The notes under the pieces are model-generated. The model saw nothing but the letters and a program-made list of their open reading frames with translations. It ran no database searches and was not told where the DNA came from. 64,000 nt of DNA from Folioceros fuciformis (Eukaryota), in NCBI GenBank assembly GCA_049999805.1, contig JBNGIO010006060.1, positions 1 through 64,000 of the forward strand, given 5' to 3'. The position numbers and the translations under genes are program-made. Positions 1 through 63,732 of this stretch are shown in pieces (position 1 is the stretch's first letter; every line of letters starts with the position of its first letter).

Positions 1-1675
1 AACGTCGTGATGTGCAGGAACAAGTTCCTCCACTTGTACAAGAGGAGAGAGTGCAACCAGCTCCGGTCGAGGCGCCAGTACTTCGCAGGTCAGGAAGGAT
101 TTCACGTCCTCCTGACAGGTATGTTGCATCTATTGATTATGTCATGCAAACGGATTGTGGGGAGCCCTCTTGTTACCAAGAGGCCATGTCAGTGACTGAC
201 AAGGACAAGTGGGAGAAGGCGATGCAGTCGCAAATGGATTCACTCCACAAGAACCAAACTTGGGAATTGGTTCGGTTACCTAAGGGCAAAAAGGCGTTGC
301 CATGCAAATGAGTGTATAAGATGAAGGACAAACCCCATTATGGTAAACCCAAGTACAAAGCACGATTGGTTGCGAAGGGTTTTAAGCAACAGCAAGGTAT
401 TGACTTTGATGAGATTTTCTCACCGGTTGTCAAAATGACCACCTTGCGATGTGTTCTTGGTCTGGTTGCGAGGCTCGACATGGAACTTGTCCAGATGGAT
501 GTGAAGTCGGCATTTTTGCATGGTGATCTCCAGGAAGAGGTATTCATGCAACAACCAGAGGGTTTCATTGAGAAGGGCAAAGAGAATCTGGTGTGCAGGT
601 TAAAGAAGAGCCTTTATGGTTTGAAGCAGGCACCCAGGGAGTGGCATTTCAAGTTCCACTCATTTATGCTTTCTCAAGGCTACAAGCGTAGCGATGAGGA
701 TCATTGCCTCTATACGAAGCAAGCTAAGGATGGAAGCTTGCTCATTCTGGTCCTCTATGTGGATGATATGCTAATTGCTGGGACTAACAGTGATGAGATT
801 TCAACGTTGAAGTCAAAGTTGAATGGTCGCTTTGACATGACAGACTTGGGAGAGGCAAGCCATATTCTTGGCATGCGTATTCGTCGAGACAGACAGAAGC
901 GTTTGCTGTACTTGTCTCAGACTGAATACATTNNNNNNNNNNNNNNNNNNNNNNNNNNNNNNNNNNNNNNNNNNNNNNNNNNNNNNNNNNNNNNNNNNNN
1001 NNNNNNNNNNNNNNNNNNNNNNNNNNNNNNNNAGCTGTAGGGAGTTTGATGTATGCAATGATTGCTACACGTCCTGACATTGCCTTTGTAGTGGGAGTGG
1101 TTAGCAGGTTTATGTCAAACCCTGGCGGGAAGCATTGGGAGGCAGTGAAAGGAATTATGAGGTACTTGAATGGTACAAAAGCTTTGTGCTTATGTTTTGG
1201 TAGTGAAGATGCATCTGTTGTGGGCTATACGGATGCTGATTATGCAGGGGATATGGACAAAAGGAGGTCCACATCAGGTTATGTCTTCATGTGCACTGGA
1301 GGGGCAGTTTCATGGCGATCGCGTTTGCAATCGTGCATAACGCTTTCTACCACAGAGGCCGAGTATGTTGCAGCGACTGAGGCGTGCAAGGAAGCCATGT
1401 GGCTTGCTCGTTTAGTGGGAGATTTGGGGATCAAGGTTGAGCTGCCAGTGTTGCATTGTGATAGCCAGAGTGCTATCCAATTGGCAAAGAATCCAGTGTT
1501 TCATGCGAAGACCAAACATGTGGAAGTGAAGTATCACTTCATTCGAGAGGTGTTGGAAGACAAGAGGGTACAACTTGTCAAAGTTCACACCAGTCAGAAC
1601 CCTGCAGATGTTCTTACCAAGGGGCTCTCTTTGGAGCAATTCGCACAAGATCGGACACTCATGGGCATGAGGTAG
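1..1675 (+). mobile_element. Ty1/copia LTR retrotransposon pol, 3' part (reverse transcriptase + RNase H), defective
   Basis: Copia RT motifs KARLVAKGF, QMDVKSAFLHG, LKKSLYGLKQAPR and LYVDDML; RNase H motifs GYTDADYAG, EAEYVA, LHCDSQSAI and NPADVLTK. In-frame TGA at 309-311 where CKWVYK is expected. Assembly gap at 933-1032. Confidence 0.96.
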
Positions 1676-1705
1676 ATCACTCTCCTATCAAGGTAATTGG
1701 CCTTT

Positions 1706-2015
1706 AAGGGGGCGGTTGTAGGGTTATTAAAGCCCAATGTGCCTAGACTAATGTGTTTAGTCTAAGATTCGTGTCTAATTAAGTATCATTAGTTTAGATT
1801 AGCTTAAGCTAATCTCTAGGAAGCTTCTTGTGCAGCTTCCTATGGGCTTCTTGTGAAGCTTCCTAGGGAGCTCTTCTAGAGGGTATAAATACCTCCTTGA
1901 GCTCCCTTGTATGTGTGACTCTATTGTGAGAGTTTGACCTTTCTTTCTCCTCTTCTCCTTGCCTCCTCCTCTCCTTCTCCATGTAGCTCCTAGAGCGTTC
2001 TTTTCAATGTGTACA
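1706..2015 (+). mobile_element. Polypurine tract and probable 3' LTR of the copia element
   Basis: Purine-rich AAGGGGGCGG (1706-1715) lies just after the pol stop, followed by TG at 1717, TATAAAT at 1884-1890, a CT-rich stretch and a candidate ...TGTGTACA end at 2015. The right boundary is inferred because the 5' LTR is outside the window. Confidence 0.65.
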
Positions 2016-3874
2016 GTTACGCTAACCTGGTCACTGAGCTAGAAATGCTGGCCTCGCTGCACCTATGGAAGCCAGTTCACGATGTGAAGTGGAAGCCCGT
2101 TGAGCCAGCAAGGGCTGCCTCCAGCAGTTGGGAAGCTGACGGTGGGAATAGCTCGCACGAGGAAACCGCAGTCAAGCCCAGGAAGAGGATGGCGCCACAA
2201 AAGAAGACTCCTGCCAAGAGGAAAAGGACCAGGGGACGAAGTGTGAGCATGGGGGCTGATCAGGAGGAAGGGGGGACAACCCTGGAGCAGACGGGTCAGC
2301 AGGAGGCAGAACGAGAACCAGCTGTCTAGGGAATCAAGGACCGAAGGTTGGAGGAGCAAGGTCAGGGTGAGACAAGACCCGAGGAGCCACAGGATCAGGT
2401 GATGGCAGCCGACATAGTTTCCTCCAGACAGGAAGATAAGTTAGGGCACGTTTCAGCACAAGAGGGTTTCTCAAGGTGGAAGGACATTTTCAGGTGCAGG
2501 CCTCAGAGAGACAGGTTGCAGGTGGGGGACCTGGACAAGTTGCGAGAATTCTTGGGCAGACAAATTACGGCGAGAGGAATGGGCATCGGAGGGGTGCAGG
2601 AGGTGGACCTACCCGGGCTGACTGCTGCGATGGTGCAAGCCCAAGCAGACCTCCTGGATCAGGCTGCTAGGGCCCTGACATGGTTAAGTGTACAAGCGGA
2701 GCGAGAGGCCGAGGCTCGGGGAAAGGAGGAGAAGGCTCGTGAGCGAGAGGCTGAAGCAAGGAGGCAGCTGGCGGAGTCGTAGACAGCGTGGCAACTGTTG
2801 GAGGAGAAGCAGCGGGTCCTGGACAGGGAGAAGGCTCAAGCCGAGGAAGAGGCGCGCGAGGCGAGGGCTGAAGTGCAGGCGCTGAAAGAGCAACAGGGGA
2901 CCCTGCTAGCTCAGGTGAGGGAGGCTCACGAGACTAACCTGGAGATGCAACAGGAAATGGCCAAGGCACAGGAGATGGAGATAGCCGCTGTGGAGCAGGC
3001 TCAGAAGTTGGCTGACAGATACAAGCGGGGGCGGGATGAGGCCAGAGAGAGAGTGAAGGGGAAGGGCAAGGCTGGGCGTTCGAGTCAATCGGCGACCCCG
3101 GTAGCAGAAGGGGCTACCGGTAGCCGAACCAGGGGAACGGTAGTCCACGGGACTACCGATAGCCCTATAGTCCACGGGACTACCGGTAGTCGGGTAGCCG
3201 ACGGGGCTACCGGTGGCCCAGCAAGGCCCAAGATAGCTAAAGAACCAACCCTGGAAACGAAGGAGGAAGCAGTAGGGGCGCCTGTCCCTAGGCGCTCCAG
3301 GAGGGTGACCCGTACCAGGCGGACAGAGCCGGAGGAGGCAACAGCTAGGCAGGCAGAGAACCTTCAGGTACCCCAGCAGGAGGGGGAGTAGGCAACCCGA
3401 GGTAGCCCAAGGGAGGACGGGGTAAGCACCTCTGTTATGACAGAAGGTCGGATTGTGCTACAGTATGAGGAGGAGGCCTCCTATGTGCCAGGCCTGTATG
3501 TAGAAGGGGCCAGGGTTTTGAAGCTGTTTTTGTATGTACGTATGGGCACAGGAGGGACGCGGGGCTACGGCCTACAGTTGAGGACGTGCCTGGGACTCTA
3601 CCACTACAGCTGGTGGGTGACAAGACTGCCCCACTGCTATGCGGAGGCAGTTCTGGAGGAATTGACGGAAGAGGAGGCCCAGTGCTGGGTAGAACGGGGG
3701 CCTGTGGCTGTCCTCAGCAACCAGAGAAGGAGGAGGAGTGGTGGACCACAGCGGCGGGACCCACCTGTGCCGCAGCCAGGTCCAGCAGTAGCAGCAGTGA
3801 TGTGGAGAACTTTGGGAGGATCTGCCGGACCAACGGAGGGGCAGAAGAGCGAGAGGAGGAGCAACAAGGAGTGA
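2016..3874 (+). pseudogene. Decayed long coiled-coil ORF, probably an accessory ORF of a Ty3/gypsy-like element, truncated 5' by the copia insertion
   Basis: ORFs 2009-2329, 2348-2782, 2798-3391 and 3437-3874 are all in one frame, separated only by single TAG codons (2327, 2780, 3389). The product is E/R/A-rich coiled coil with no introns. TE origin is inferred from context. Confidence 0.55.
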
Positions 3875-43111: not shown

Positions 43112-43934
43112 ATAGCAGTTAGGTACAGAATTTTTTTCGGTGCCTTCTGCACTATTCATTCCGTTTGCGCCAGTAGCCATGACCGGCTGGCATTTGGTGA
43201 GCTGGAGATCTACGTTGTCAATGTTCGAAGTGCTGATTCATTTTTGAGGTCGCGAAGTGAGTGTGCAACTTGTTCTGTCAAGCTGTGCGGATGGACTAGT
43301 TTAGGGACCCCGTTTGCTCCCTTGTGACTGGGTAATTTGTCCTGAAAATCAGGTTGGTCTCAAACATTCCCAATATTTGCGGACTTATTGAAATTCATCT
43401 ACCTTCTGTGTGGCAAGCATACCAAAATTCCATGAGTGTTGTTTCTGATCCCCGGTACCTCCAAATTCCTACAGCACACGCTTACCATATTTTCTCTCAG
43501 ATTGCGATACGACAAAACGAGGGATATGAGCTCATACTCTCATGTGCCCATGACGAACGTAGAAACGGCGTGATCCACAGTCAACCTCATAGTTACGACC
43601 AGGTCATAGTTACGACCAGGTCAGGGCTTCTACGGTAGGCAATGTATAGCATCCCATCCTATTGGTGAATAATTTAATTTTTTTGTTAATTCATTAATGA
43701 AATCAGTTTTGATTTAGAGAATAGCTCTGAATTTGGTGCGAAAAACAGTCCTATGTAGTTCATCTTTCACATTAAGTTTATATTTATAATATAAAATAGT
43801 TTTAGCTATAAATATATATTATTTAGTTCTTTGTATCAAACTAATCATAATATAATATTTCCATGCACAACATCATTCCATAAGCCAAACAAAGCTAAAT
43901 TGAAATATACCATCAAAGGCAATGCAAGGATATC

Positions 43935-44580
43935 TGACCACCTCCCATGAGTTCTCGAGCCTTCAGGACCTCCAATCACCTCCTAGAAGTTCTCATGCCT
44001 AAGGACCGCCAATCACCTCCTAGTAGTTCTCCTACCATGAGGACCTATAATAATCTCAGAGCAATTCTCATGCCTTGAGGACCTTCAAGCACCTCCTAGC
44101 ACTTCTCATGCCATGAAGACCTTCATTCACCTTCTAGCAATTCTTATGGTTTGAGGACCTCTAATCACCTCCTAGCAGTTCTCAGCCCTAAGGACCTCCA
44201 ATCATCTCCTCCTATCATCTCCTTGTAGTTCTCATGCCTTGAGTACCTCCAATCGCCTCCATAGCAGCTATTATGGCCTGATGACCTCCAATCACCTCCG
44301 AGCAAGTCTCATCCCCTGAGGACCTCCCATCACCTCCTAGCAAGTCTCATCCCCTAAGGACCTCCAATCACCTCCCAGCAAGTCTCATCCTCTGAGGGCC
44401 TCCAATCACCTCCAAGCAGGTCTCCTCCCTTGAGGGCCTCCTATCACCTCCTCGCAAGTTTCATCCCATGAGGACCTCTAATCACCTCCTAACAAGTCTC
44501 ATCCCTTGAGGACCTCCAATCACCTTCTAGCAGTTCTCATGCCATGATGGGCTTCAATCACCTCCTTGCAGTTCTCACGC
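43935..44580. repeat. 38-bp minisatellite, about 17 degenerate copies
   Basis: Unit GAGGACCTCCAATCACCTCCTAGCAAGTCTCATCCCCT. The period is not a multiple of 3. Confidence 0.93.
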
Positions 44581-44727
44581 TTACATACGACAAACCAAAG
44601 TCACCACAATATAGTCATATAAGAGTTCTTGAAAGATAATGCCCCCAACTAGATTCCCTCTTAACCTCTTCTGGTTTTCTTAGAGCAATTTAAGACCAAA
44701 GTTCTCCAACAATATTAAAAGAAGAGT

Positions 44728-47700
44728 TCACTGCTCTGGACGCCAGTATCGACTCTTCTTCACAGTCCACTCAAGGATATTGGTTGTTGGATGTGGACGT
44801 TTCTTTCTCCCTAGAGTTGTATTGGGATGTGTCTCTATTCTCAAAGCAGCACTCTCTTTAGTTACTACATGAGGACTTGTATGATCTCTTGCTTCCAACC
44901 TAGCCATCCCCGTAGATGTATGTGGATGTTTCCCCTGCCCTGGTGATGCATCCCTCTTGTTGCTGAGTATTGAAGGTCTTGAAATGTCCGTTGCTTTCAA
45001 CGTAGCCATTCCCATAGCTTGTCTCTCCTTTCTAGAAACCATCCCCATAGCTTGTCTGTCCTTTCTAGAAATATCCCTTTGTTTACTCATAAGTTTGGAA
45101 GGAATAGAAACAATTGTTGTTTTGAATCTAGGCACCCCCAAAGTTGAATTGCTGTGTTTCTTCTTCCCAAAAGAACTCTCCTTTGGACTCACTCTCCCAA
45201 GGGCCGGAGTATCTACTACATTCACTCTCAAAGGTGCTGGAGTATCTGCTGCATTCTTCTTTTGGCTCACTCTCAGAGGGGCCGGAGCATTTGCTGCATT
45301 CTTCTTTGAAATCCCTCTCATAGGAGCTAGAGTATGTGCTACATTCTTCCTTGGAATCCCTCTCAAAGAGGCCAGAGTATCTGTTGCATTCTTCATTGGA
45401 CTTAATCTCAGAGGAGCTGGAGTACCTGTTGCATTCTTCTTTGCACTCACTCTCAGAGGGGCTGGAGTATTTGCTGCATTCTTCTTTGAACTCCCTCTCA
45501 GAGGAGCTGGAGTATCTGCTGCATTCTTCTTTGGATTCACTCTTCGAGGGGCTAGAGTATCTGCTGCATTCTTCTTTGGACTCACTCTCCGAGGGGCTGG
45601 AGTATTTGTTGCAATCTTCTTTGGACTCACACTGTGAGGGGCTGGAGTATTTGGTACAATCTTCTTGGAACTCCCTCTTACAGGGGCTGGAGTATTTGTT
45701 GCAGTCTTCTTCGAACTCCCTCTCACAGGGGTTGGAGTATTTGCTGCATTCTTCTTCGGACTCACTCGCAGAGAGGCTGGAGTATTTGCTGCATTCTTCT
45801 TCAAACTCACTCGCAGAGGGGTTGGAGTAGTTGCTGCATTCTTTTTTAGACTCACTCTCAAAGGCATTAGACAAGTTGCTGCATTCTTCTTTGGACTCCG
45901 TCTCAAAGGGGCTGGAGCATTTGCTGCTTTGAACCTAGCCACACCATCCTCTCTCATACGACGGTTATCACCTTGTCCAAGCTTCATTACCTTTACGGCT
46001 TGGCTTCCCAAAAACACAATGTCTTGCATTCCTCTTTGTCGCATGGCAATGGGCAATGGAGCATGTTGTTGACGTTGAAGTGTATCATAAATATTTGCAG
46101 CAATGGCCAAAGTCATTGTTGGATCTTGAGTATACTCCAATTGTTGACATTGTGCAGCATATTCGTCATTCATACAAGGCAAGATGATACTTTTGGAGTA
46201 AATCACTTGCTTATCTGTTGCTTTCTCTTTACCTTCACTATCACGCTTTCTAGATTTCTCTGCTTCCAAACCAACTCTATAGTTAGATGAGATCCATAAA
46301 TTTCACACTAATAGTTCTCATCAATAACTTCATGGATGCAAGCAACCATACCTTTATTTTTCTTGACCTTTGCAACATTCCCATCATTCGATAGATGGGC
46401 TCTTTTCAAAGCCTTCTTTTGTTCAGGACGCGCATGTAAAGCTGCAACTTTCCAATATGTTTGTCAAGAATTTTCTGGAGTGATACAATGAAATTGGCTC
46501 AAAAGCTACACAAGTATCAATCACTTACCATTGAGATTCAAGTTTGATTTACTCAAGATAGAAGCCACATCATATTCACTGATGTGATAATTTGTGATTG
46601 CTTTAGCTCCATTGACTTCTATGGAGACTATATCATATGCTCTGAAATCATGATAACATTGATTAAACATGACAAACTTACAAATTATGAAATAGAATTA
46701 GACAATAGCACTCTTGCATACATAATGTCACGCACATAAAATATCATGTAAACTTGCATAGAGGACATTAATATAAACAGGAAATAAATACCTTGCCGCC
46801 TCTTCTTCAGTATCATGGAAACCTCGGGTCAAAGTACCATCCCTAGAAATAATAGATACAATATATCATAGATATCAATACTCCATACTATTTTACCAAA
46901 AATATGTAATGTCATAAAAAATGTCTTCTTACCTCTTGGCAGCTGGATTTTGAATCTTATATTCAGCCTTCCATTTGCTTCTTTGCGCTTCAAATCTTAT
47001 ACCAAAAAAGTTGGAATCTAAACTTCGTTTTGCCATGCATCTTGACCACTCAAGAAATTCATTTTTGGTCATCTGCTCAATCTGCATGCATCAAATGTAT
47101 GAGTTAGGTAACTAAATTTCTTCAAATCAAACCATTTAAGGAAGATAAGGAATAATTTAGAGCAATATGTTACAGTAGAGAAAAAGAAACGAATAGAAGA
47201 AAGTAAAGAGAAGTTCACTGTTGTTTTATCTCATGATATATTTGTTCCTATATATATGATAGTTACAAAAAAACAGAAACAAACCTCCTGGATACAGTCA
47301 TGATATGAACTCAATTTAAAGTTTGTTGGTGCTGATGATCCTCGAAACTTTAGAGACCCTCTATCATAATGTCTGCACATTCCAAATGTGTGTGACAGGA
47401 TCACAAATGAACTACTAACTTTCAATGGATACCTAAAATACTATTTAACAATTGTGCGAACATGTACCTCAGCCATTAGCAAAAGCAATGCAAAGACTAC
47501 TTAAGATTAGACTTAGTGATTGCCACACATTTTTATGACCAGCAACAAAGTTGATAGTTACAATTTCCTCTCTTGGATTAGATGCATTACTTCCAATCCA
47601 ACACGTACCTTGCAGCTTCAATCTCGTTGTGGCATGAACCTGAATAAAACACATCCAAAATATGCTATTAGAATTGTCATGCTTGTCAACAAGACTCTAC

Positions 47701-50391
47701 ATCAGACCATATATTATTACTTGGTTATATATATAACATATGAATACTATTTTTTTTGTTGTATAGATATTTTGAAGATGAGCCCATAGAATTTAGCGTA
47801 TGAATGAAGGCACAGAAGCCTACCGAGATATTGCTGTTTCCCATTTAGCCTTTTGGGTGTCTCCCTGAAAAATTTGCGAAAGAAGAGCAAAAGGTTAGCC
47901 AGTTAGTTACGACTGGTAGTCTGAAACTATGCTTGAACTTGGGACCATGTAGTTTACAAACCATATGTGTGCCTCCCATCTGTTGGTGCGACTGTAGCAA
48001 TTCACTCCCTGAAACTGTGACTTACGAGATACCATCTTCCTTGATTGGGGTTGCAAGTCCTTTGGTGGGCAGCATTTGCCTTTGGCAAGGGCTTCCTTGT
48101 TGTCTTGCAACCAGGTTCTCTCCCTGATCGCATACCTTAGGTAGAAAGACAGATTTCCTGTCTTCTCCGCTGCTGCTAGGGGCGTTCCCGGCAGTCCGTT
48201 GAACAGATCAGCAGGAAGCCTGTTCCACTTAGATCGTGGACCTTTGCCTCGGCATGCGCTGCTACTCGGTGAAAGCGGCACTTCGATAAGCGAGGTGTGA
48301 GCTGGACGAACAGCTGGTAAAGGCCGGATATCATTGGCTTTCGGATCACTTGACTGTGACACCACCACATCGACATAGATAACCTGTAAAGCACGCGGAT
48401 ATTAAAATGTGACTCGACTAACTGTATTTCGAACCTCTGTCAGACTTGAATCAAACAGCAAAAACTGAGGATGATCAAACTCTGAAAGCTTGCCATGATT
48501 CTCAACCTCGACGAAACAAGAAAGTTATGATTGACAAACATTGAAGACAGTCACATCTTAGCGCCCTCACTTACAGCTAGAGGCTCAGGGTCATGTCATG
48601 TAAAGAAACTCATCATTTCCACGACAGAATATCTCAAGATACGTCAATTCTACATGCACCTACAGAGCTGCACAAGCTTGACAAGAGCGGAGCTGACTTA
48701 CATTCGATGATGAACTTTCCTGATCTTGTTCCAGAAGGTAGGGCCCTGTAGACGAGCTTGGATCCTACACATGTCGTTGAACAACACATATAAGAACATG
48801 GGTATGGGAAGTGTGAGATTTCCGTCAAGTGGAAACGGAGCACACCAGGCAGCAAGCTTAATGCTGTGCACGTGTATACAAATCCATCCTGGTGTCGCGA
48901 AAAACACTGGGCTATATATACATTGAATTGAAGAATTGCAGCTGGAAAGTCTCAATTGAATTTGTCCCAGAAAATCTGGTTACATACCCGTGAGTTGTGC
49001 AACTGGATTTCTCTGATGGGATACCGCTGCATCCCCACCTCTCCAACAGAGGATTGAGACGTGGCCTCTGAACTTGCGGCAGGGAATTCATACACCGTGT
49101 TCCCAGATCGGCGGCACCCGGATCGAGACCTCTTATTTGCCCATATGTGCGCAGTGTCATCTTCACGGTACGGCATAGCTTTCCCGTGAAGACCAAGGCG
49201 AATTGACGAGGACGAAGCATCGTCGTCGGATTGTCCCGCCTGCACAAGTAGTTATCAGTCAAGAAGATTCAGATTGGACGAACCTGAACTGAGTCATCCA
49301 TAAGCACTGAGACGTCAACGCCTGCAATATTTTATTTTAAGCTTAAGACAGCAGTCATGATGCAAGCTCCCGAGCTAGTAGTGAAATGCATGGTCCTGAC
49401 AGCTCCATGAACTTAGGGCAGTAGAAATGCATGGTCATGAAGTTAGGCCATTTCACGACTGACTGTTAAAAGCAAGCTAAAGTGCGCTGCAAATCACAAA
49501 TTAGCACGTGAGCCACCAGACCTTAACAACGTCATTCTGCGGACGCTTCCACGGGCCAGCGCCAGCGGCTGGTAGAGATCCTCCTCCAAGGGGCTTTGGA
49601 GCTGTCGTTGCAGGGGATCCGGGGCTAGTTCGGCTGAGCATCGGGGCACGATAATCTTCTCTCCTCACTGCGCGCAGTTTGGCCAGGGCAAACGATCAGC
49701 AGAGAATCATTAGCAGGCCTTTGCAGGGCAAAGCAATCCAAGATCGGCCTGAACTAGGCAGGAGGAAGCAGATACTGCAGGCTTTACCTCGTGCGGAAGC
49801 TGGAGGGTGGGGATCCGCCCCGGGGTGAACCGCTGGTACTCGACGTGGCCCAGATGTGGGTGGAGGGTGCTCGGCAGGAAGGGGGAGTTGTGGAATGGAG
49901 AGTGGAGCGAGAGGATTTTGATGGGAATCTGCTGCTGGCGCCCTCAGATCTCTGCGTTCTGGTGGAGTGACCACAAGCGGGGAAAAAGGAGGGAGGGGTA
50001 CAGATGGCACGGGCACAGACTCGGGCGCTGATGTCGGCTCCGGGGACGGCTGGCGCAGCAAAAGGCGAGCACGCTCTCGCGCCCGATCTTTCGTCATATC
50101 ACACAAGGAAGCTTGAGGTTGTGGGGGAAGTGCTTTTGTAATATGTTTACCTTGGGGATGCTTCCTTGGCGTCCAGACTTGAAGGCGGCTCCAAGGTCGG
50201 GCGCGCATGATGGCCACTCCCTGCCTCCGTCGAGCTTCCCATGCCGCAATGCGGCGATCGTTTTCGTCCGGCTGCAAATTCAAGTCCACTGCGCTATGCA
50301 GCCGGCGTAGAGCATCCGCAACAGGACCGGCTGTAACCGCCGCCGCTGCCGTGGGTCTCACTGTCGGCTGCTGCTTCCTGATTCGAGCCAT
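44728..50391 (-). CDS. Divergent double-AP2 (euAP2-like) transcription factor, copy 1, with SPKK-repeat C-terminal tail
   Basis: Exons 48383-47962, 47864-47824, 47639-47609, 47372-47285, 47081-46933, 46842-46792, 46641-46529 and 46441-46352 splice in frame. R1 is SQFQGVNCYSRTNRWEAHIWETPKRLNGKQQYLGSCHNEIEAARHYDRGSLKFRG..TNF; the linker is MTKNEFLEWSR; R2 is FFGIRFEAQRSKWKAEY...GFHDTEEEAARAYDIVSIEVNGAKAITNY. Joining the last exon (ending 44728) needs the GAG acceptor at about 46275. Probable first exon 50391-49788 carries a DLNxxP motif; the 5' exons are not fully resolved. Confidence 0.82.
45170..45930 (-). repeat. Coding 45-bp (15-aa) tandem repeat TPAPLRVSPKKNAAx, about 16 units
   Basis: Visible in the DNA and in ORF 44728-46269. 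Confidence 0.93.
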
Positions 50392-52921
50392 CTTCCCTTA
50401 CTGATATTGGGAGCTGCGCAGTCAGGTCAACACTAATGTTAGCAAAGGCAATTTGTTCAGGCTGTCTTCCCCTGATAACTCCACTCACGACCTCCCAGCA
50501 GGAAAGGCACGGAATTCGAGGCTACCTGACGCTCCCAAGCGAGTGCGAACAGATCCGGAAAGCTGGAGCGCGACCACGGGAGTGAAAGAAGCCTGATGCA
50601 ATAGATAAGATCAAGGGAGCAATGAGCTGCTTGCTATGGCTCGAAACAGAAGGCTGGGAGTAGAACTTCAGGACCTCACAGTTTCATCAGCGAGCTGTGT
50701 AGGCGAATTCCTTACCGCCGCAGAGCGCAGTTGGCCGAGGAATGCTGGGTGTTCGAGCAGGATGTGGAAGCTTTAAGCAGTGCGTCGCAGACCGGTGATG
50801 GAGGAGCTCGGGCCCGCTGAGCTCGGGGGAGCTCAACGGCAGAGCTTCAGAGTGACGGGGGAGCGGGAAGGAGAGACAGAAGGGCCTTCAAGGTCCCAAA
50901 TGAGAGGAGAGAGGAGCGAGGAGAGAGAGAGAGAGTCGTGCTGGGAGAAAGAATGTACGAAATTCACCCAGCGGTTAAATGCCACACTAAGGCTCATATC
51001 ACAAACAAGCCAGTTAAGTTAATCTAGCGATGTCCAGTACCCACAGCTACGACACGTTCGGGCAGCGGGCAGGCCAATGACGCAGTTTTCCGGTACTGCG
51101 CCCTCCAGGGGAGTGGAGACGGTTAGAGGAAGGGCCCGCCTGTCCGAACCGGGACAATGGGCCCTTAAATCCTCTGCGTGATCATGGCGCAGTATCTGGA
51201 CACTGCGTCATCAAACTGCGACCGGCGACGGGGCAGGCTCAGAACGGGACGGGCGGGACAGGCGGGGACGGGAAGGACACCCCTGGGAAACGGGCACAAA
51301 CAGGATTTCCTCCATGTTCAACGGCACGGGACAGAGATGGCATCACTATGGATGCAGGGCATATTCCGAGCCCAGGCTCCTCAGCGTAATGATGTAGGCA
51401 CCCCTCAGCAACATCATGTGCAAGGGATGCAGCCAGTTCATCACCGGCCAGCCACCGCAGTGGTTTGCTTATGACGGCAAGCCACGATGCGCATTATCTG
51501 GAGTCCAGTCCGTGCGCTGGCCTCAAGACAGACGAACGCAGCTGCAACTGGTGAGAAATCCTTCCCAGGTTCACGAAACTGGCTGGTGAGCAGCTTTCCC
51601 AGGCTCTAGCATGCAAACTGGCGTACTGCATTGGTATGTACGTTCATACATGGATAGAGAAACCCCAAGGGTGCCTTCCCATTCCTTCAAGTCCCGAATC
51701 GCAGTCATCCATTCATGTCAGGCCTCGTCCTCGAGTTGCTTCAAGTGACAACATTGCTGCCGGCTATGCGAGGTTAGATTCCGATGTGGTTCCAAGGTTT
51801 TCACTCGTTGGATAAAGTTGGGACGGAACCAAGCGATGCTGAGCAGAGGCTCGGGCTCCCACGTAAGAATAGAAATGATCAAGCACTTGAGCCGGCTAAG
51901 AGCAGTCACATCTCCTAGCTGCTTAATTTTCAATGACAAGGCGAGTGGCTGTAGGCAGAGCCTCGCGCTGCTCAGTGCTATACGCCGCGTGAAGATGCAA
52001 GCGGCAGGTTTGTATCTTGCAGGGGACGGCTGCATTCATTAACCTCGTACACGGTTTCTAGCGCTCGGCCACCGCGGAAGGATGAGTTAAAGAAAAAGGA
52101 TGAGCTTGAAGGCGTTGATGACCGTACAGTGTACACTCTACCCAGGAGTCCCGTCCTGGTCGAGTTGCGTGCATGACCCTGGACCCTAAAGCTGAATCGG
52201 AACAGGCCCGTCGCTTACCACTCCTTGCCCAGCTGTAGCTGAAGGAGTGGACTTCAGAAGCGGCCGATAGCTGAGCTTAACACCTTGTTGGCAGGCTCGA
52301 CTGCCCACGAAAACGGGCACTTCTTCTAGCTGTTTGGAGAGATTGTCGCCAGCGAACGCCTAAATGCTGCCCTACAACCTGGCATAGCTGCAGACTCATG
52401 ACAGTGCTTGTCGATCGCGAAAATGCACACATGCTAGGATCCAGACATTTGCAACTCGATCTGTAATTCCAGATGGAGTTTATCATTTGTCCGCGCTAAA
52501 GAACTCTGCATAAGCAGACGGCAAGTTTGCAGAGTGCGATCCCACATTGACACTTGCAATGCGAGTCAGGAGTCCGAGCGCAAAAATCAATATCCACTGG
52601 AACCTGTGGAGCGTACGCTCCACAGCTTCCAACGAGCCCGAGCCCAAACCATTTTACAAGGTTGGGAAATCCTGCAGCTAAACTTGTTTCCAGCCCGGAA
52701 CTGGAATTGTGCATTCGGCAAAGCTGCACTCTCTAACGCGAGCCTGCATGTGGGAGACAGACCCACGCGCCATGATCGTGATTAGGGAAAAGGCAAGCCC
52801 GAACAATGCGTTGGAGCCAGCAGACTGTGGAGGCATTCATGCCAAGCTCAAACATCCACCCAAACATGAAAATGAAAACAGTTTCAACGGAAGGCAGCAA
52901 TATAAATCATACAATCATGAT

Positions 52922-54649: not shown

Positions 54650-55350
54650 ATGCCCATGCTACATGGTCTGAGATGATTGGAGATTTGCTCTAGGTCACGT
54701 TATCATTGCACATGGCCAAGTTACATGGTTTGAGAGATTATCGTAGATTGCACGTGGTCATATTAAGTGGTTTGCGATGATCGTAGATTGCACATGGCCA
54801 TGTTACGTAGTCTCCAATGATCGTAGATTGCACATAGCCCTATTATGCATGGTTTGCGAGATTATCGTAGATTGCAGGTGGTCATATTACATGGTGTGCG
54901 ATGATCGTAGATTGCACATGGCCATGTTACGTAGCCTCCAATGATTGTAGATTGCACATAGCCATGTTACGTGGTCTGCGATGGTCGTAGATTGCACATA
55001 GCCATGTTACGTGGTTTGCGATGGTCGTAGATTGCACATAGCCATGTTACGTGGTTTGCGATGATCCTAGATTGCACATAGCCATGTTATGTGGTCTGCG
55101 ATGATCGTTGATTGCACATAGCCATGTTACGTGATTTGCGATGATCGTAGATTGCACATAGCCATGTTACGTGNNNNNNNNNNTTACGTGATTTGCGATG
55201 ATCGTAGATTGCACATAGCCATGTTACGTGGTTTGCAATGTTCGTAGATTGCACCCGGTCATGTTACGTGGTCTGGTCTGCGATGATTGTAGATTGCATG
55301 TGGCCATGTTATGTAGTTTGTGATGATTGTAAATTGTACATAGTCATATT
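54650..55350. repeat. 40-bp minisatellite, about 17 copies visible, with an assembly gap inside
   Basis: Unit GCCATGTTACGTGGTYTGCGATGATCGTAGATTGCACATA. N run at 55174-55183. Confidence 0.95.
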
Positions 55351-60062: not shown

Positions 60063-63000
60063 TTAGTTAGCAGGATGCCAATATCTGCTCTTCTTTGCAG
60101 CCCATTCAGGGAGATCGATTGATGTAGCTGGATGTTTCTTCCTCCCAAGAATTTCGGTTGCCTCACTCTTTTTGGAAAGACTTGCAATACATGTTCCATG
60201 GAAGCTTGCAATCAAATTTGCACGAGGGTCATCACTACCTCCAAGTTTCAATACCTTTGTAGATAGAGGTTGCGCTCCTGTTAACTGTAATGTCATAACC
60301 TGGGGCAAATTAAGCTGTCTATGCAGAGCAGTTTCGAAAGCATTTGCAGCAATGGCCAGTGTCAAAGTTGGGTCGAATTCTCCAGCAACAAGTTGCCGAT
60401 TGTGTGCAATAGTCAACTCATAATTAGTAATCTGCCCCTCTTGCCTTGAAGCTCTCTCTTGAACACTTGTTCCCAGTTCTTTTCCCTTATCAGTGTGCCT
60501 CCTATGTCCTCCTCCTGTGAGAGGAAAGAAAGTTGGATGAGAGATTCATAGAATAACTACAATCAATACAGAAGATTGATGTCAACAAGCAAATATTACC
60601 TGGACGACTCTGGACGATTGCCTTATTTGCAGCTTTTGTCAGACGAGTTGGTGTCGGCCTTTGTTCTTGTTCTTGACGATGTAAAGCTAGTCATTTCAAT
60701 TTCCAAATGAAGAAAACAAGTTTATCAGAATGGATAGTTCCTTCCCCAACCCACATCTTCACATGGGCAATTCAAAAGCAATGTGTTTGAATGACCCACC
60801 ATGAAAGTTCAATTTCGATTCACTCTGGATGGAAGCAATATTGTATTCTTTGATGTCATAATTGGTGATGGCATCGGCTCCACTGACTTCAACAGATACT
60901 ATGTCGTATGCTCTTCAATCATAGTTCAGTGTAAGTTCAGGAAACTAGAAATTGGAAAGAGGCTCTTCAATCATAGTCTAGTGTAAGTTCAAGAAACTAG
61001 AAATTGGAAAGAGGCTCTTCAATCATAGTTCGGTGTAAGTTCAGGAAACTAGAAATTGGAAAGGGGCTCTTCAATCATAGTTTAGTGTAAGTTCAAGAAA
61101 CTAGAAATTGGAAAGAGGCTCTTCAATCATAGTTCGGTGTAAGTTCAGGAAACTAGAAATTGGAAAGGGGCTCTTCAATCATAGTTCAGTGTAAGTTCAA
61201 GAAACTAGAAATTGGAAAGAGGCTCTTCAATCATAGTTCAGTGTAAGTTCAAGAAACTAGAAATTGGAAAGAGGAACTTACGAAGATCAACATACACAAT
61301 TTATTAGCATAACAACATACTGTAAACCTACTCAAATGACCATGACAGACATATTGGGCAGCTCCTTCAATCATAGTTCACTGTAAGTTCAGGAAACTAG
61401 AAATTGGGAAGAGGAACTGACGAAGATAAACATACACAATTTATTAGCATAGCAACATACTGGAAAACCTACTCAAATGACCATGACAGACATACCGGGC
61501 AGCCTCTTCTTCAGTATCATGGAAGCCTCGATTCAGAGTGCCATCCCTAGAAATAAAACATAAAAACGATAAATAATAGTATTATTTATAAAATGATCAA
61601 AGAAGAACAGTGAAGTTAGAAGACTTCATGTTCTTACTTTTTGGCAACAGGATTCTGGATCTTATACTCAGCCTTCCACTTGTTTCTGAATGCATCGAAT
61701 CTTGTGCCAAAAAATTGTGAAGCCAAACAACGTCTTGCCATGCATCGAGACCATTCCAGAAATTGGTCTTTGCTCATTAGCTCCATCTTAAGGACATGGA
61801 ATATAGATGATAAGTCACTAGTGATAACAAATGTCTTCAAAACTTTGAGCTTGAACACACATGATGTGTAGGTTCAAGGGGAGTGTCAAGCTAAACCTTA
61901 TCCTCAATAACAAAATCTAGAAAGCTACAGCAAACCTCTTTGATGCAATCGTTGTAGGAGCATGAGTTGAAATTTATGGGAGCTTCGGGTCCTCGGAATT
62001 TCAGAGATCCTCTGTCGTAATGTCTGCATATTTTCAAGTAATAATTTCTATTTTAGTAACCACCACCAAAAACAAAAGGTGTACTTACTTGAACTAGTTC
62101 TCACCTTGCAGCTTCCAGCTCGCTGTAACATGAACCTGTACAGTGCATTCCAAACAAGTGTCAAAAGCAGCAGGTAATGAAAGACTGAAGATAGATGGTG
62201 CGAAAGTACTATCTGCGTATACAGTGAGGCAAGAAAGCTTACCAAGATATTGTTGTTTTCCATTTTGCTTTTTCGGTGTCTCCCTAAAAAATCACAAGAA
62301 AACAGAAAAAGACAAAGGTCACTTCAGCGCTTCCCTGTTACAACTTCAGCTATATGCAGGGCCCCTGACAAACCATGAATTGGTGACAAGCGTGAAGGTA
62401 GCCTTTAGCTCACGTACCATATGTGTGCCTCCCATCTGTTGGTGCGACGGTAGAAATTGACGCCCTGAAATTGTGACTTACGGGATTCCATCTTCCTGGA
62501 CTTGGGTTGCATGTCTTTTGGTGGGCAGCATTGCCCTTGAGCAAGTGCCACCTGGTTGTCTTGCAGCCAGGTTCTCTCCATGATGGCGTACCTTAAGTAA
62601 AACGACAGAGGTCCTGTCCTCTCCGCTGCTGCTAGTGTCGTCCCCGGCAGGCCGTTGAAAAGGTCAGCCGGAAGCCTGTCCCATGAAGACTGATCATTTC
62701 CGCCAGGGCTCTCCAGTGAAGTAGCGGCCACGGGAGGCGCGTTGAGGTCGACAATTGGCGTGATCACCTCAGGGGACAGATCACGCCGAGGTGGAGACCG
62801 ATCATAGGTTTCTGGAGCAGCTGCCGGTGCCACCTCCTGGTCCACATACCGAGCCTGAAAAGCACACAGTACAAGCATGTGAAGAAACTGCATCCATGCG
62901 CGCATATGACAATCTGCATCCTTGCGTACAGTTGCACTCTGCCGAACTTTGATCAAACAGCGCAAAACCAGGAAGTATTGAGGGATCGCTTGCCAGATCG

Positions 63001-63732
63001 TGAAATTGAGGAAAACGAGTAATTGACAAACAACAAAATGACAGTCACATTGCACACTGGATCATTATGTCGACGCGATGCCCTGAAGTGCAGCTACTTG
63101 ACGTGCACAACCCCATGAGTTCCACGACAGAGTATGTCATATACCTGAATTCTACATGCAGCTATATAATACAAAGGTGCACAAGCTTGAGAAGAGTGGT
63201 GATACACTCACATTTGAAGATGAAGAGCTTTCTTGGTGTTGTCCAACGTCAGGCCCTGTGGACGAGCTTGGAGCCTACAGACATCGTCGAGGAGCATAAG
63301 AACATCGCAACTGCATCGAGATGCATCGCATCGGGCACCCAGGCAGACAATTCAAGCTTGACGACGCACACACATTCATACAAGTCTTCTATCACCGGGG
63401 TGGAGAACAAGACTGGGCTATGGAGACATTTAGGAATTCCGTCCCAGAAAGTTCGAGATGCATCTTGGCTCACGTACCGGTGGCTTGTTCAGGTCGATTG
63501 CTCTCATGGGCTGGTTCCCCTCGAATCCAGCAGAGTATCCGGACTCGGACAATGAAGCATATGCAGACGAAGCTCTCCTTCTTGGTATTCGCGAAGTTGA
63601 GCGCACCCGATGGTGAGCCCATCGAGTTGGACTCCATACTTTCCCACGGCCATCTGCATGGTTGGGAATAGCACTCGCGTGAAGATGAATGGGTGCTAAT
63701 GCGGTTGTAGGCCTGTCCTTGGCGGCGCCCGC
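60063..63732 (-). CDS. Divergent double-AP2 (euAP2-like) transcription factor, copy 2 (5' end outside the window)
   Basis: Exons 62854-62418, 62283-62243, 62135-62105, 62023-61936, 61786-61638, 61546-61496, 60912-60800, 60686-60600 and 60514-60063 are all in frame. R1 is [49 protein letters not shown]; R2 includes GFHDTEEEAARAYDIVSVEVSG. DLNxPP motifs lie upstream. AP2-region exon sizes equal those of copy 1 (41, 31, 88, 149, 51, 113 nt). Confidence 0.85.
60910..61500. repeat. Intronic 52-bp tandem repeat (7 copies) plus a duplication of about 139 bp covering the whole original intron
   Basis: GCTCTTCAATCATAGTTCAGTGTAAGTTCAGGAAACTAGAAATTGGAAAGAG starts at 60910, 60962, 61014, 61066, 61118, 61170 and 61222. 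61222-61360 matches 61361-61500. Confidence 0.95.

Follow-up and report, generated by a model that had tools for sequence, protein, structure and literature searches.

The last exon of one of two tandem AP2-type genes of Folioceros fuciformis contains a 45-bp coding minisatellite that the other gene lacks, and we consider it probable that this array is young and that its product, a basic disordered spacer, is tolerated by a strongly diverged, probably euAP2-derived factor. The window analysed here comprises bases 1-64,000 of a 190-kb contig (assembly of 87 Mb in 7,240 contigs), and both genes, copy 1 and copy 2, lie on its minus strand. The short introns, AP2 genes of land-plant type and H1-domain proteins with Arg-rich tails would suit a seed-free plant of small genome. 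The array-bearing last exon of copy 1 is transcribed and spliced in frame, and its protein is predicted. An earlier note on this DNA had proposed that copy 1 gained a basic, histone H1-like SPKK tail. A spliced basic tail, absent from the paralog and with its frame under selection, was indeed found; the SPKK/CDK-type H1-like module was not supported.

The RNA data come from one public run, marked as RNA by guess and with a depth of about 6. Six RNA contigs aligned to positions 43600-50600 with eight joints. Seven of these have GT-AG ends and match introns 1-3 and 9-12 of the gene model, that is, 7 of 12 introns were seen spliced; the eighth is a backward step inside a 38-bp array. RNA contig 2 covers 44590-46259 with no differing letters and no gaps and spans the whole 45-bp array in frame, the array sequence in this sole run being that of the genome. 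The same RNA contig joins 46352 to 46259 (GT-AG, 33 nt on the short side), and therefore the acceptor of the last exon is a canonical CAG at 46260-46262 and the exon starts at 46259. The earlier note had expected an in-frame join to need a GAG (46274) and not the adjacent TAG (46276); neither is the acceptor in this RNA contig. A transcript using the TAG or ending before the repeat, the outcome it had set against its own proposal, was not what the RNA contig showed. Between 46330 and 46200 there are 18 AG sites, 8 of them frame-keeping. The CAG is preceded, 3 nt upstream, by an AAG acceptor that is also in frame, and is one codon from the corresponding site of copy 2.

The model of copy 1 has 13 exons and 1,193 aa, is free of stops and frameshifts, and shares its intron phases with copy 2; introns 4-8 come from the model, exons 5-8 have no listed RNA cover, and the gene was pieced together from several contigs. 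On the minus strand, exon 1 (49788..50391, ATG at 50391; model, with the intron 1 joint in RNA) includes a DLNxxP EAR-type motif at about 50286-50269, as this motif is defined in the part of PMC8136505 cited here. Exons 2-4 occupy 48702..49667 (49667-49522, 49239-48988 and 48764-48702; introns 1-3 in RNA, and model). A block of about 70 aa (48030..48227) precedes AP2 repeat 1 (AP2-R1), which together with the start of the linker lies in the end of exon 5 and in exons 6-8 (47285..48029; exons at 47864-47824, 47639-47609 and 47372-47285; model and euAP2 profile). The linker and a strongly altered AP2 repeat 2 (R2) follow in exons 9-11 (46529..47081; exons at 47081-46933, 46842-46792 and 46641-46529; introns 9-11 in RNA, model and alignment). 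Exon 12, with a phase-1 donor, is at 46352..46441 (RNA and model), and the last exon is at 44728..46259 (1,532 nt; RNA contig 2 and model). Against the 513 open codons reported previously, the last exon contributes 509 residues after a split codon, followed by the stop. Past the stop lies a non-coding 38-bp x 16.5 minisatellite (43939..44577, minus strand; TRF), which contains indels of frameshift size, is transcribed (RNA contig 1, overlapping contig 2), and is probably 3' UTR.

TRF placed the 45-bp array at 45222-45927 on the minus strand (15.7 copies, 82% matches, 0% indels). In codon register it consists of 15 full units, from 45921 to 45247 (minus), plus a partial unit, in agreement with the previous count of about 16, and the consensus is NTPAPLRVSPKKNAA, within which SPKK is found. 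All 15 units are pairwise non-identical. Perfect SPKK occurs in exactly 4 of the 15, as had been noted (starts 45921, 45786, 45651 and 45606), and S/T-P-x-K/R sites number seven per 225 aa. The array was also correctly described as being flanked by two blocks that copy 2 has as well: DPTMTLAIAAN to KVMKLG (45976..46125, minus; dN/dS 0.34 between the copies; predicted helix) and a basic C-terminal block, LGRKK...EW..KKSRYW (44728..44814, minus; dN/dS 0.39), which we take to be NLS-like. Copy 2 has neither the array nor any SPKK. Head-to-tail units longer than 10 bp, located in a spliced reading frame and frame-preserving, make this a coding minisatellite. Both copies end in YW-R/H-P-x-x (44731-44745 and 60066-60080, minus), which presumably resembles the WRPW co-repressor-binding tails of animal factors only loosely and probably by chance.

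The last exon of copy 1 is 360 aa longer than that of copy 2. The rest of the excess lies in 44815..45256 (minus strand), where repeat finding and alignment revealed other in-frame duplications: 33-bp pairs (45189-45256 and 45006-45071) and decayed copies of the segment preceding the array (at about 45141 and 44910). The array contains 12% K, 8% R, 17% A and 14% P, with a net charge of +43 over 225 aa (+0.19 per residue); the net charge of the whole last exon is +68 in copy 1 versus +5 in copy 2. In a single-sequence AlphaFold model (mean pLDDT 42.5) the array is a low-confidence coil, a prediction compatible with disorder and little proof of it. Pfam matched no family on the copy 1 last exon, a single DNA search of the genome found no other locus with the array (a lower bound), and no single-copy seed of the unit was demonstrated in copy 2 (P 0.19).

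Openness of the frame despite divergence of the units had been remarked on, but the absence of stops is no more than chance would give (P of no stop about 0.37-0.39). Of the 135 single-base changes possible in the unit, just 3 introduce a stop in this frame, and over the 15 units another minus-strand frame, in which 9 changes would do so, is likewise free of stops, so the absence of stops is uninformative. The argument that the open frame shows selection was therefore rejected, stop-free frames being expected from this 45-bp unit. Frameshifts are informative by count: the array has 0 frameshifting indels per 45 substitutions versus about 6 expected (P 0.002, Poisson; 0.009, Fisher), the expectation being taken from five non-coding arrays, three in the window and two in control stretches, where 149 distinct substitutions are accompanied by 20 distinct indels of frameshift size. 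The array reading frame is thus kept by selection against frameshifts, and the need to reach the conserved C-terminal block is the simplest cause. In the part of PMC3899988 cited here, coding tandem repeats have unit lengths that are multiples of 3 and are under selection against frameshifts, which is also true of copy 1; the same source finds that most minisatellites belong to genes for cell-surface proteins, with microsatellites being the type found in transcription factors, so that a transcription factor with a 45-bp x 16 array is a less usual case.

The amino acids of the array change at about the neutral rate. Comparison of the units with their consensus gives 44 distinct alleles, of which 12 are synonymous (11.2 +/- 2.3 under random placement), distributed 16/17/11 over the three codon positions. 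Among units, dN/dS is 1.04 and dS 0.23 (all pairs, which are not independent). Between the two copies, dN/dS is 0.087 in the AP2 core (168 codons; dS about 1.4, near saturation) and 0.14 in the block upstream of AP2-R1. Comparison of these values and those of the flanking blocks with the among-unit ones indicates that the array arose after the gene duplication and is under far weaker constraint than the sequence around it. For the array, dN/dS values up to 0.35 are rejected (P 0.002), a value of 0.5 lies at the borderline (P 0.047), and 0.6-0.7 is compatible with the 44 alleles.

These rates bear directly on the suggestion that the array works as an H1-like module, attaching to AT-rich minor grooves or condensing DNA until CDK phosphorylation turns it off. 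SPKK is in the consensus, the four SPKK and seven S/T-P-x-K/R sites provide potential targets, and in the part of PMC9903204 cited here SPKK does bind AT-rich minor grooves and phosphorylation blocks the binding; sperm H2B variants there have five to seven SPKK motifs, and the motif is said to evolve easily. On the other hand, 11 of the 15 units lack SPKK, its Pro survives in 7 of 15 units, which makes it the least conserved of the 15 codons, and no deficit of replacements is seen in the SPKK codons (8 versus 9.6 expected, P 0.32), the Ser-Pro pair alone having 6 replacement alleles versus 4.8 expected. The S/T-P-K/R-K/R motif is thus not maintained by selection. Like histone H1 tails and the sperm H2B of sea urchins and hydrozoans, the copy 1 tail is basic, rich in Pro and Ala, likely disordered, and has several SPKK; it differs in having no H1 globular or histone-fold domain, only four decaying motifs in 225 aa, and 12% Lys.

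A PF00538 search of the genome gave three matches listed of five candidates, none in the window. The tails of these three H1-domain proteins carry +0.23 (cut by a gap), +0.66 and +0.53 per residue and contain no SPKK. Two of the genes have Arg-rich tails (43-51% Arg; L063 and L064, from about position 1500) and are candidate protamine-like sperm proteins, resembling the H1-derived protamine-like sperm proteins of a liverwort in the part of PMC10858212 cited here. These separate Arg-rich proteins (+0.53 and +0.66) would fit a condensing role better than copy 1, and a transcription factor would usually be too scarce for bulk chromatin condensation. A Lys-rich somatic H1 was not found in this genome, where short exons are easily missed, and a whole-word literature search turned up no paper dealing by title with SPKK in a plant AP2 transcription factor. 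Taken together, we consider the phosphorylation-controlled module very improbable.

Charge, as distinct from the motif, gives a different picture, and selection on the basic residues of the array is weakly indicated. Alleles that remove a basic residue number 2 versus 5.7 expected (P 0.028), a result that is one of seven statistics and is not significant after correction; alleles that gain an acidic residue number 1 versus 2.1 expected (not significant). The second Lys is present in all 15 units, and the Arg is missing from one of the 15. Nucleotides 30-44 of the unit show 1 of 9 possible silent changes versus 11 of 26 elsewhere (Fisher 0.12), and 7 of 36 replacement changes versus 25 of 64 elsewhere (Fisher 0.048). 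Because this segment is equally quiet at silent and replacement sites, homogenisation at the DNA level and selection on charge are inseparable there.

Bulk positive charge in a disordered tail might raise the chromatin residence of copy 1 or its entry into condensates, perhaps compensating for weakened AP2 contacts, with single motifs irrelevant and most residues drifting. The paucity of basic-loss alleles, the two nearly invariant basic positions, the excess charge over the copy 2 last exon, the selected frame, the loss from copy 1 AP2-R1 of one Arg of an RR pair kept in copy 2 and in euAP2, and an array charge near that of one H1-domain tail (+0.23) would all accord with such a tether. The retention of a 360-aa insertion in a gene under purifying selection also speaks against mere tolerance, and disordered regions can stay functional while their sequence drifts. 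Against selection for charge, the basic-loss result does not withstand correction, the silent sites of nucleotides 30-44 point to DNA-level homogenisation, and the C-terminal block alone explains selection on the frame. We therefore hold the charge-selected tether to be a tentative and rather unlikely reading, and the tolerated spacer to be the probable one.

Arrays of this kind recur around the two genes. Four arrays with a period of at least 20 and at least 7 copies (45, 38, 40 and 52 bp) occur in the 64-kb window, all within 43.9-61.3 kb, so that three non-coding arrays similar to that of copy 1 lie within 18 kb of it; none occurs in the 20 kb following the window. Control stretches contained two such arrays (38 stretches from four large contigs, 380 kb in total and 226 kb readable), which makes the enrichment modest (conditional P 0.024), given that the cluster was noticed post hoc and that the control is 40% N, whose gaps may conceal arrays. 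The 40-bp non-coding array lies between the two AP2 copies (54705-55341; 11.6 plus 3.8 copies). Other charged minisatellites that are stop-free in frame were observed elsewhere in the genome (39 bp x 11.6 at L013 2324-2779, a control array, and 60 bp x 4.2 at L019 6596-6845), and the stop-free control array indicates that coding-type minisatellites are not unique to copy 1. As for the remainder of the window, 312-3874 has frames that resemble those of a copia-type retrotransposon, with motifs of reverse transcriptase and RNase H, contain a gap and are followed by coiled-coil-like frames, and we take the neighbours at 12526-42671 to be SufE-like, ribosomal L1/L10a, LEA-like, F-box SNF2 helicase and BEACH/WD40 proteins.

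The protein that carries the array is probably a strongly diverged, euAP2-derived double-AP2 factor, judging from its domain sequences and exon structure. The spliced models match a profile of 119 euAP2 proteins (E 7e-26 for copy 1 and 2e-28 for copy 2) with both repeats aligned, and show the two AP2 domains and conserved linker of the AP2 subfamily; on single exons, Pfam gave E 0.17 for copy 2 and nothing for copy 1. Of 123 euAP2-conserved columns, from which those of one often-skipped euAP2 exon were excluded, copy 1 keeps 54 and copy 2 keeps 55. The boundaries of exon 10 match an exon skipped in 61 of 119 euAP2 isoforms, so that the gene has a euAP2-type intron position, and the pattern is unlike that of the genome's own euANT; the remaining exon sizes presumably match those of Arabidopsis AP2. 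The best tree (14 angiosperm euAP2, the first 14 of 56 with both YLG exons, three ANT and one algal sequence) places the copies on the euAP2 side (86/77) on a very long branch, with an ANT grouping not rejected (p-AU 0.196).

Several features depart from euAP2. AP2-R1 has 11 residues between WExHxW and YLG versus 6 in 119 of 119 euAP2 proteins, a 5-aa insertion that fits neither the euAP2 type, which has no 10-aa insertion, nor the ANT type. R2 is remodelled, new blocks stand upstream and at the C-terminus, the repeat tail is added, and the 1,193 aa compare with about 550-770 aa for non-angiosperm euAP2 homologues in the part of PMC8136505 cited here. Likeness to euAP2 lies in the two repeats with their linker, the position of exon 10 and, less clearly, DLNxxP, of which copy 1 has one instance and copy 2 has three, although the search pattern matched only 1 of 119 reference euAP2 proteins. 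Neither copy has the miR172 peptide signature (present in 106 of 119 euAP2 proteins) or LxLxL (107 of 119). Lycophyte euAP2 likewise lacks the miR172 site and LxLxL in the cited part of PMC8136505, so absence of the site is not decisive in a seed-free plant. On the ANT side, the copies share an R1 insertion and one extra residue early in R2, but the ANT lineage has 10-aa and 1-aa insertions in R1 and R2, respectively (the part of PMC6361745 cited here), whereas the R1 insertion of the copies is 5 aa and the euANT1 motif is missing. The exons of the genome's euANT are 83/9/89/74/51/77 against 41/31/88/149/51 in copy 1, and its two basalANT genes are, unlike copy 1 and the euANT gene, intronless in the double-AP2 region; these (L049 1423-2778 and L050 793-2640) are possibly retrocopies.

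The EAR-type motif near the N-terminus suggests that copy 1 is probably a repressor; its sequence-specific DNA binding is putative, many conserved AP2 positions being changed. The block of about 70 aa before AP2-R1 is conserved in copy 2 (about 62480-62690) and in a third fragment (L004 105-338), belongs to no known family, had no credible match in outside searches, and is possibly a small lineage-specific domain. Single-exon queries found no ortholog among 430 candidates searched for the exon-5 protein within longer proteins, nor among 8,000 scored with a three-row alignment. Four matches from a library of representatives, also with a single-exon query, were set aside: two are repeat-rich and apparently spurious, and two cover the AP2 start only. 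The Atlas gave no usable match for either last exon, and PDB sequences gave none for exon 9. No canonical euAP2 was found in this genome, in which short exons are easily missed; the conservation of euAP2 proteins among vascular plants is high in the cited part of PMC8136505.

The last 11 exons of copy 2 are modelled at 60063..63732 (minus), its first exon lying past the window end (L009). Intron 8 of copy 2 holds a 52-bp x 7 minisatellite (60910..61274, minus) in which the exon-9 acceptor is present seven times over. The frame is preserved by the last of these sites (AAG) alone, and use of any of the other six would bring in a stop at codon 380 of the partial model. Copy 2 is perhaps mis-spliced, or else its splicing has to pass over six decoys. 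A small contig holds exon 9 twice around gaps (L004), perhaps as an assembly duplicate. The 3' halves of both AP2 copies (43900-47900 and 60063-62420) are CpG-poor (obs/exp 0.20-0.39 versus 0.67 in the control), as expected under long-term CG methylation.

Copy 1 could itself be a decaying duplicate whose tail is a sign of lost function. The neutral tail, the 54 of 123 euAP2 columns kept, a stop-bearing relative of exon 9 on another small contig (L008 367-480) and the lack of listed RNA cover for introns 4-8 would agree with decay. However, 1,193 codons without a stop or frameshift, splicing of 7 of 12 introns, the AP2 core dN/dS and a branch of copy 1 (0.14) no longer than that of copy 2 (0.19) all speak against it, and decay is in our judgement very improbable.

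Under the tolerated-spacer reading, a tandem gene duplication would have produced copies 1 and 2 before the array arose, and 45 bp of the last exon of copy 1, which is under weak constraint, would then have been amplified about 16-fold, presumably by unequal exchange or slippage in a region prone to such arrays. The array would have survived because 45 is a multiple of 3, which leaves the conserved C-terminal block in frame. Its product would be a basic, Pro/Ala-rich disordered spacer whose charge probably has the side effect of some added non-specific affinity for DNA and retention in the nucleus, and SPKK would be a by-product of the founding unit, now decaying and not maintained as a device.

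If this reading is true, copy 1 is a modest, clean case of a coding minisatellite that produced a histone-like motif by chance and is now losing it, and it cautions against taking open frames or the number of SPKK motifs as signs of function. Should the tail instead be retained on account of its charge, the two tandem copies would allow a direct test of how a charged disordered tail is born. A joint reading, in which a seed-free plant remodelled its euAP2 factors to form a subfamily of its own, whose DNA-reading residues are altered and now under strong purifying selection, and in which the recent 360-aa basic tail of copy 1 is charge-kept and tethers the factor to chromatin or condensates, seems to us unlikely, slightly more so than the tether by itself; if true, it would make the paralog pair a natural experiment with and without the tail, leading from a minisatellite to an H1-like charged tail. 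That the pair keeps less than half of the conserved positions at a dN/dS of 0.09 suggests a changed DNA specificity, which may merit more attention than the repeat.
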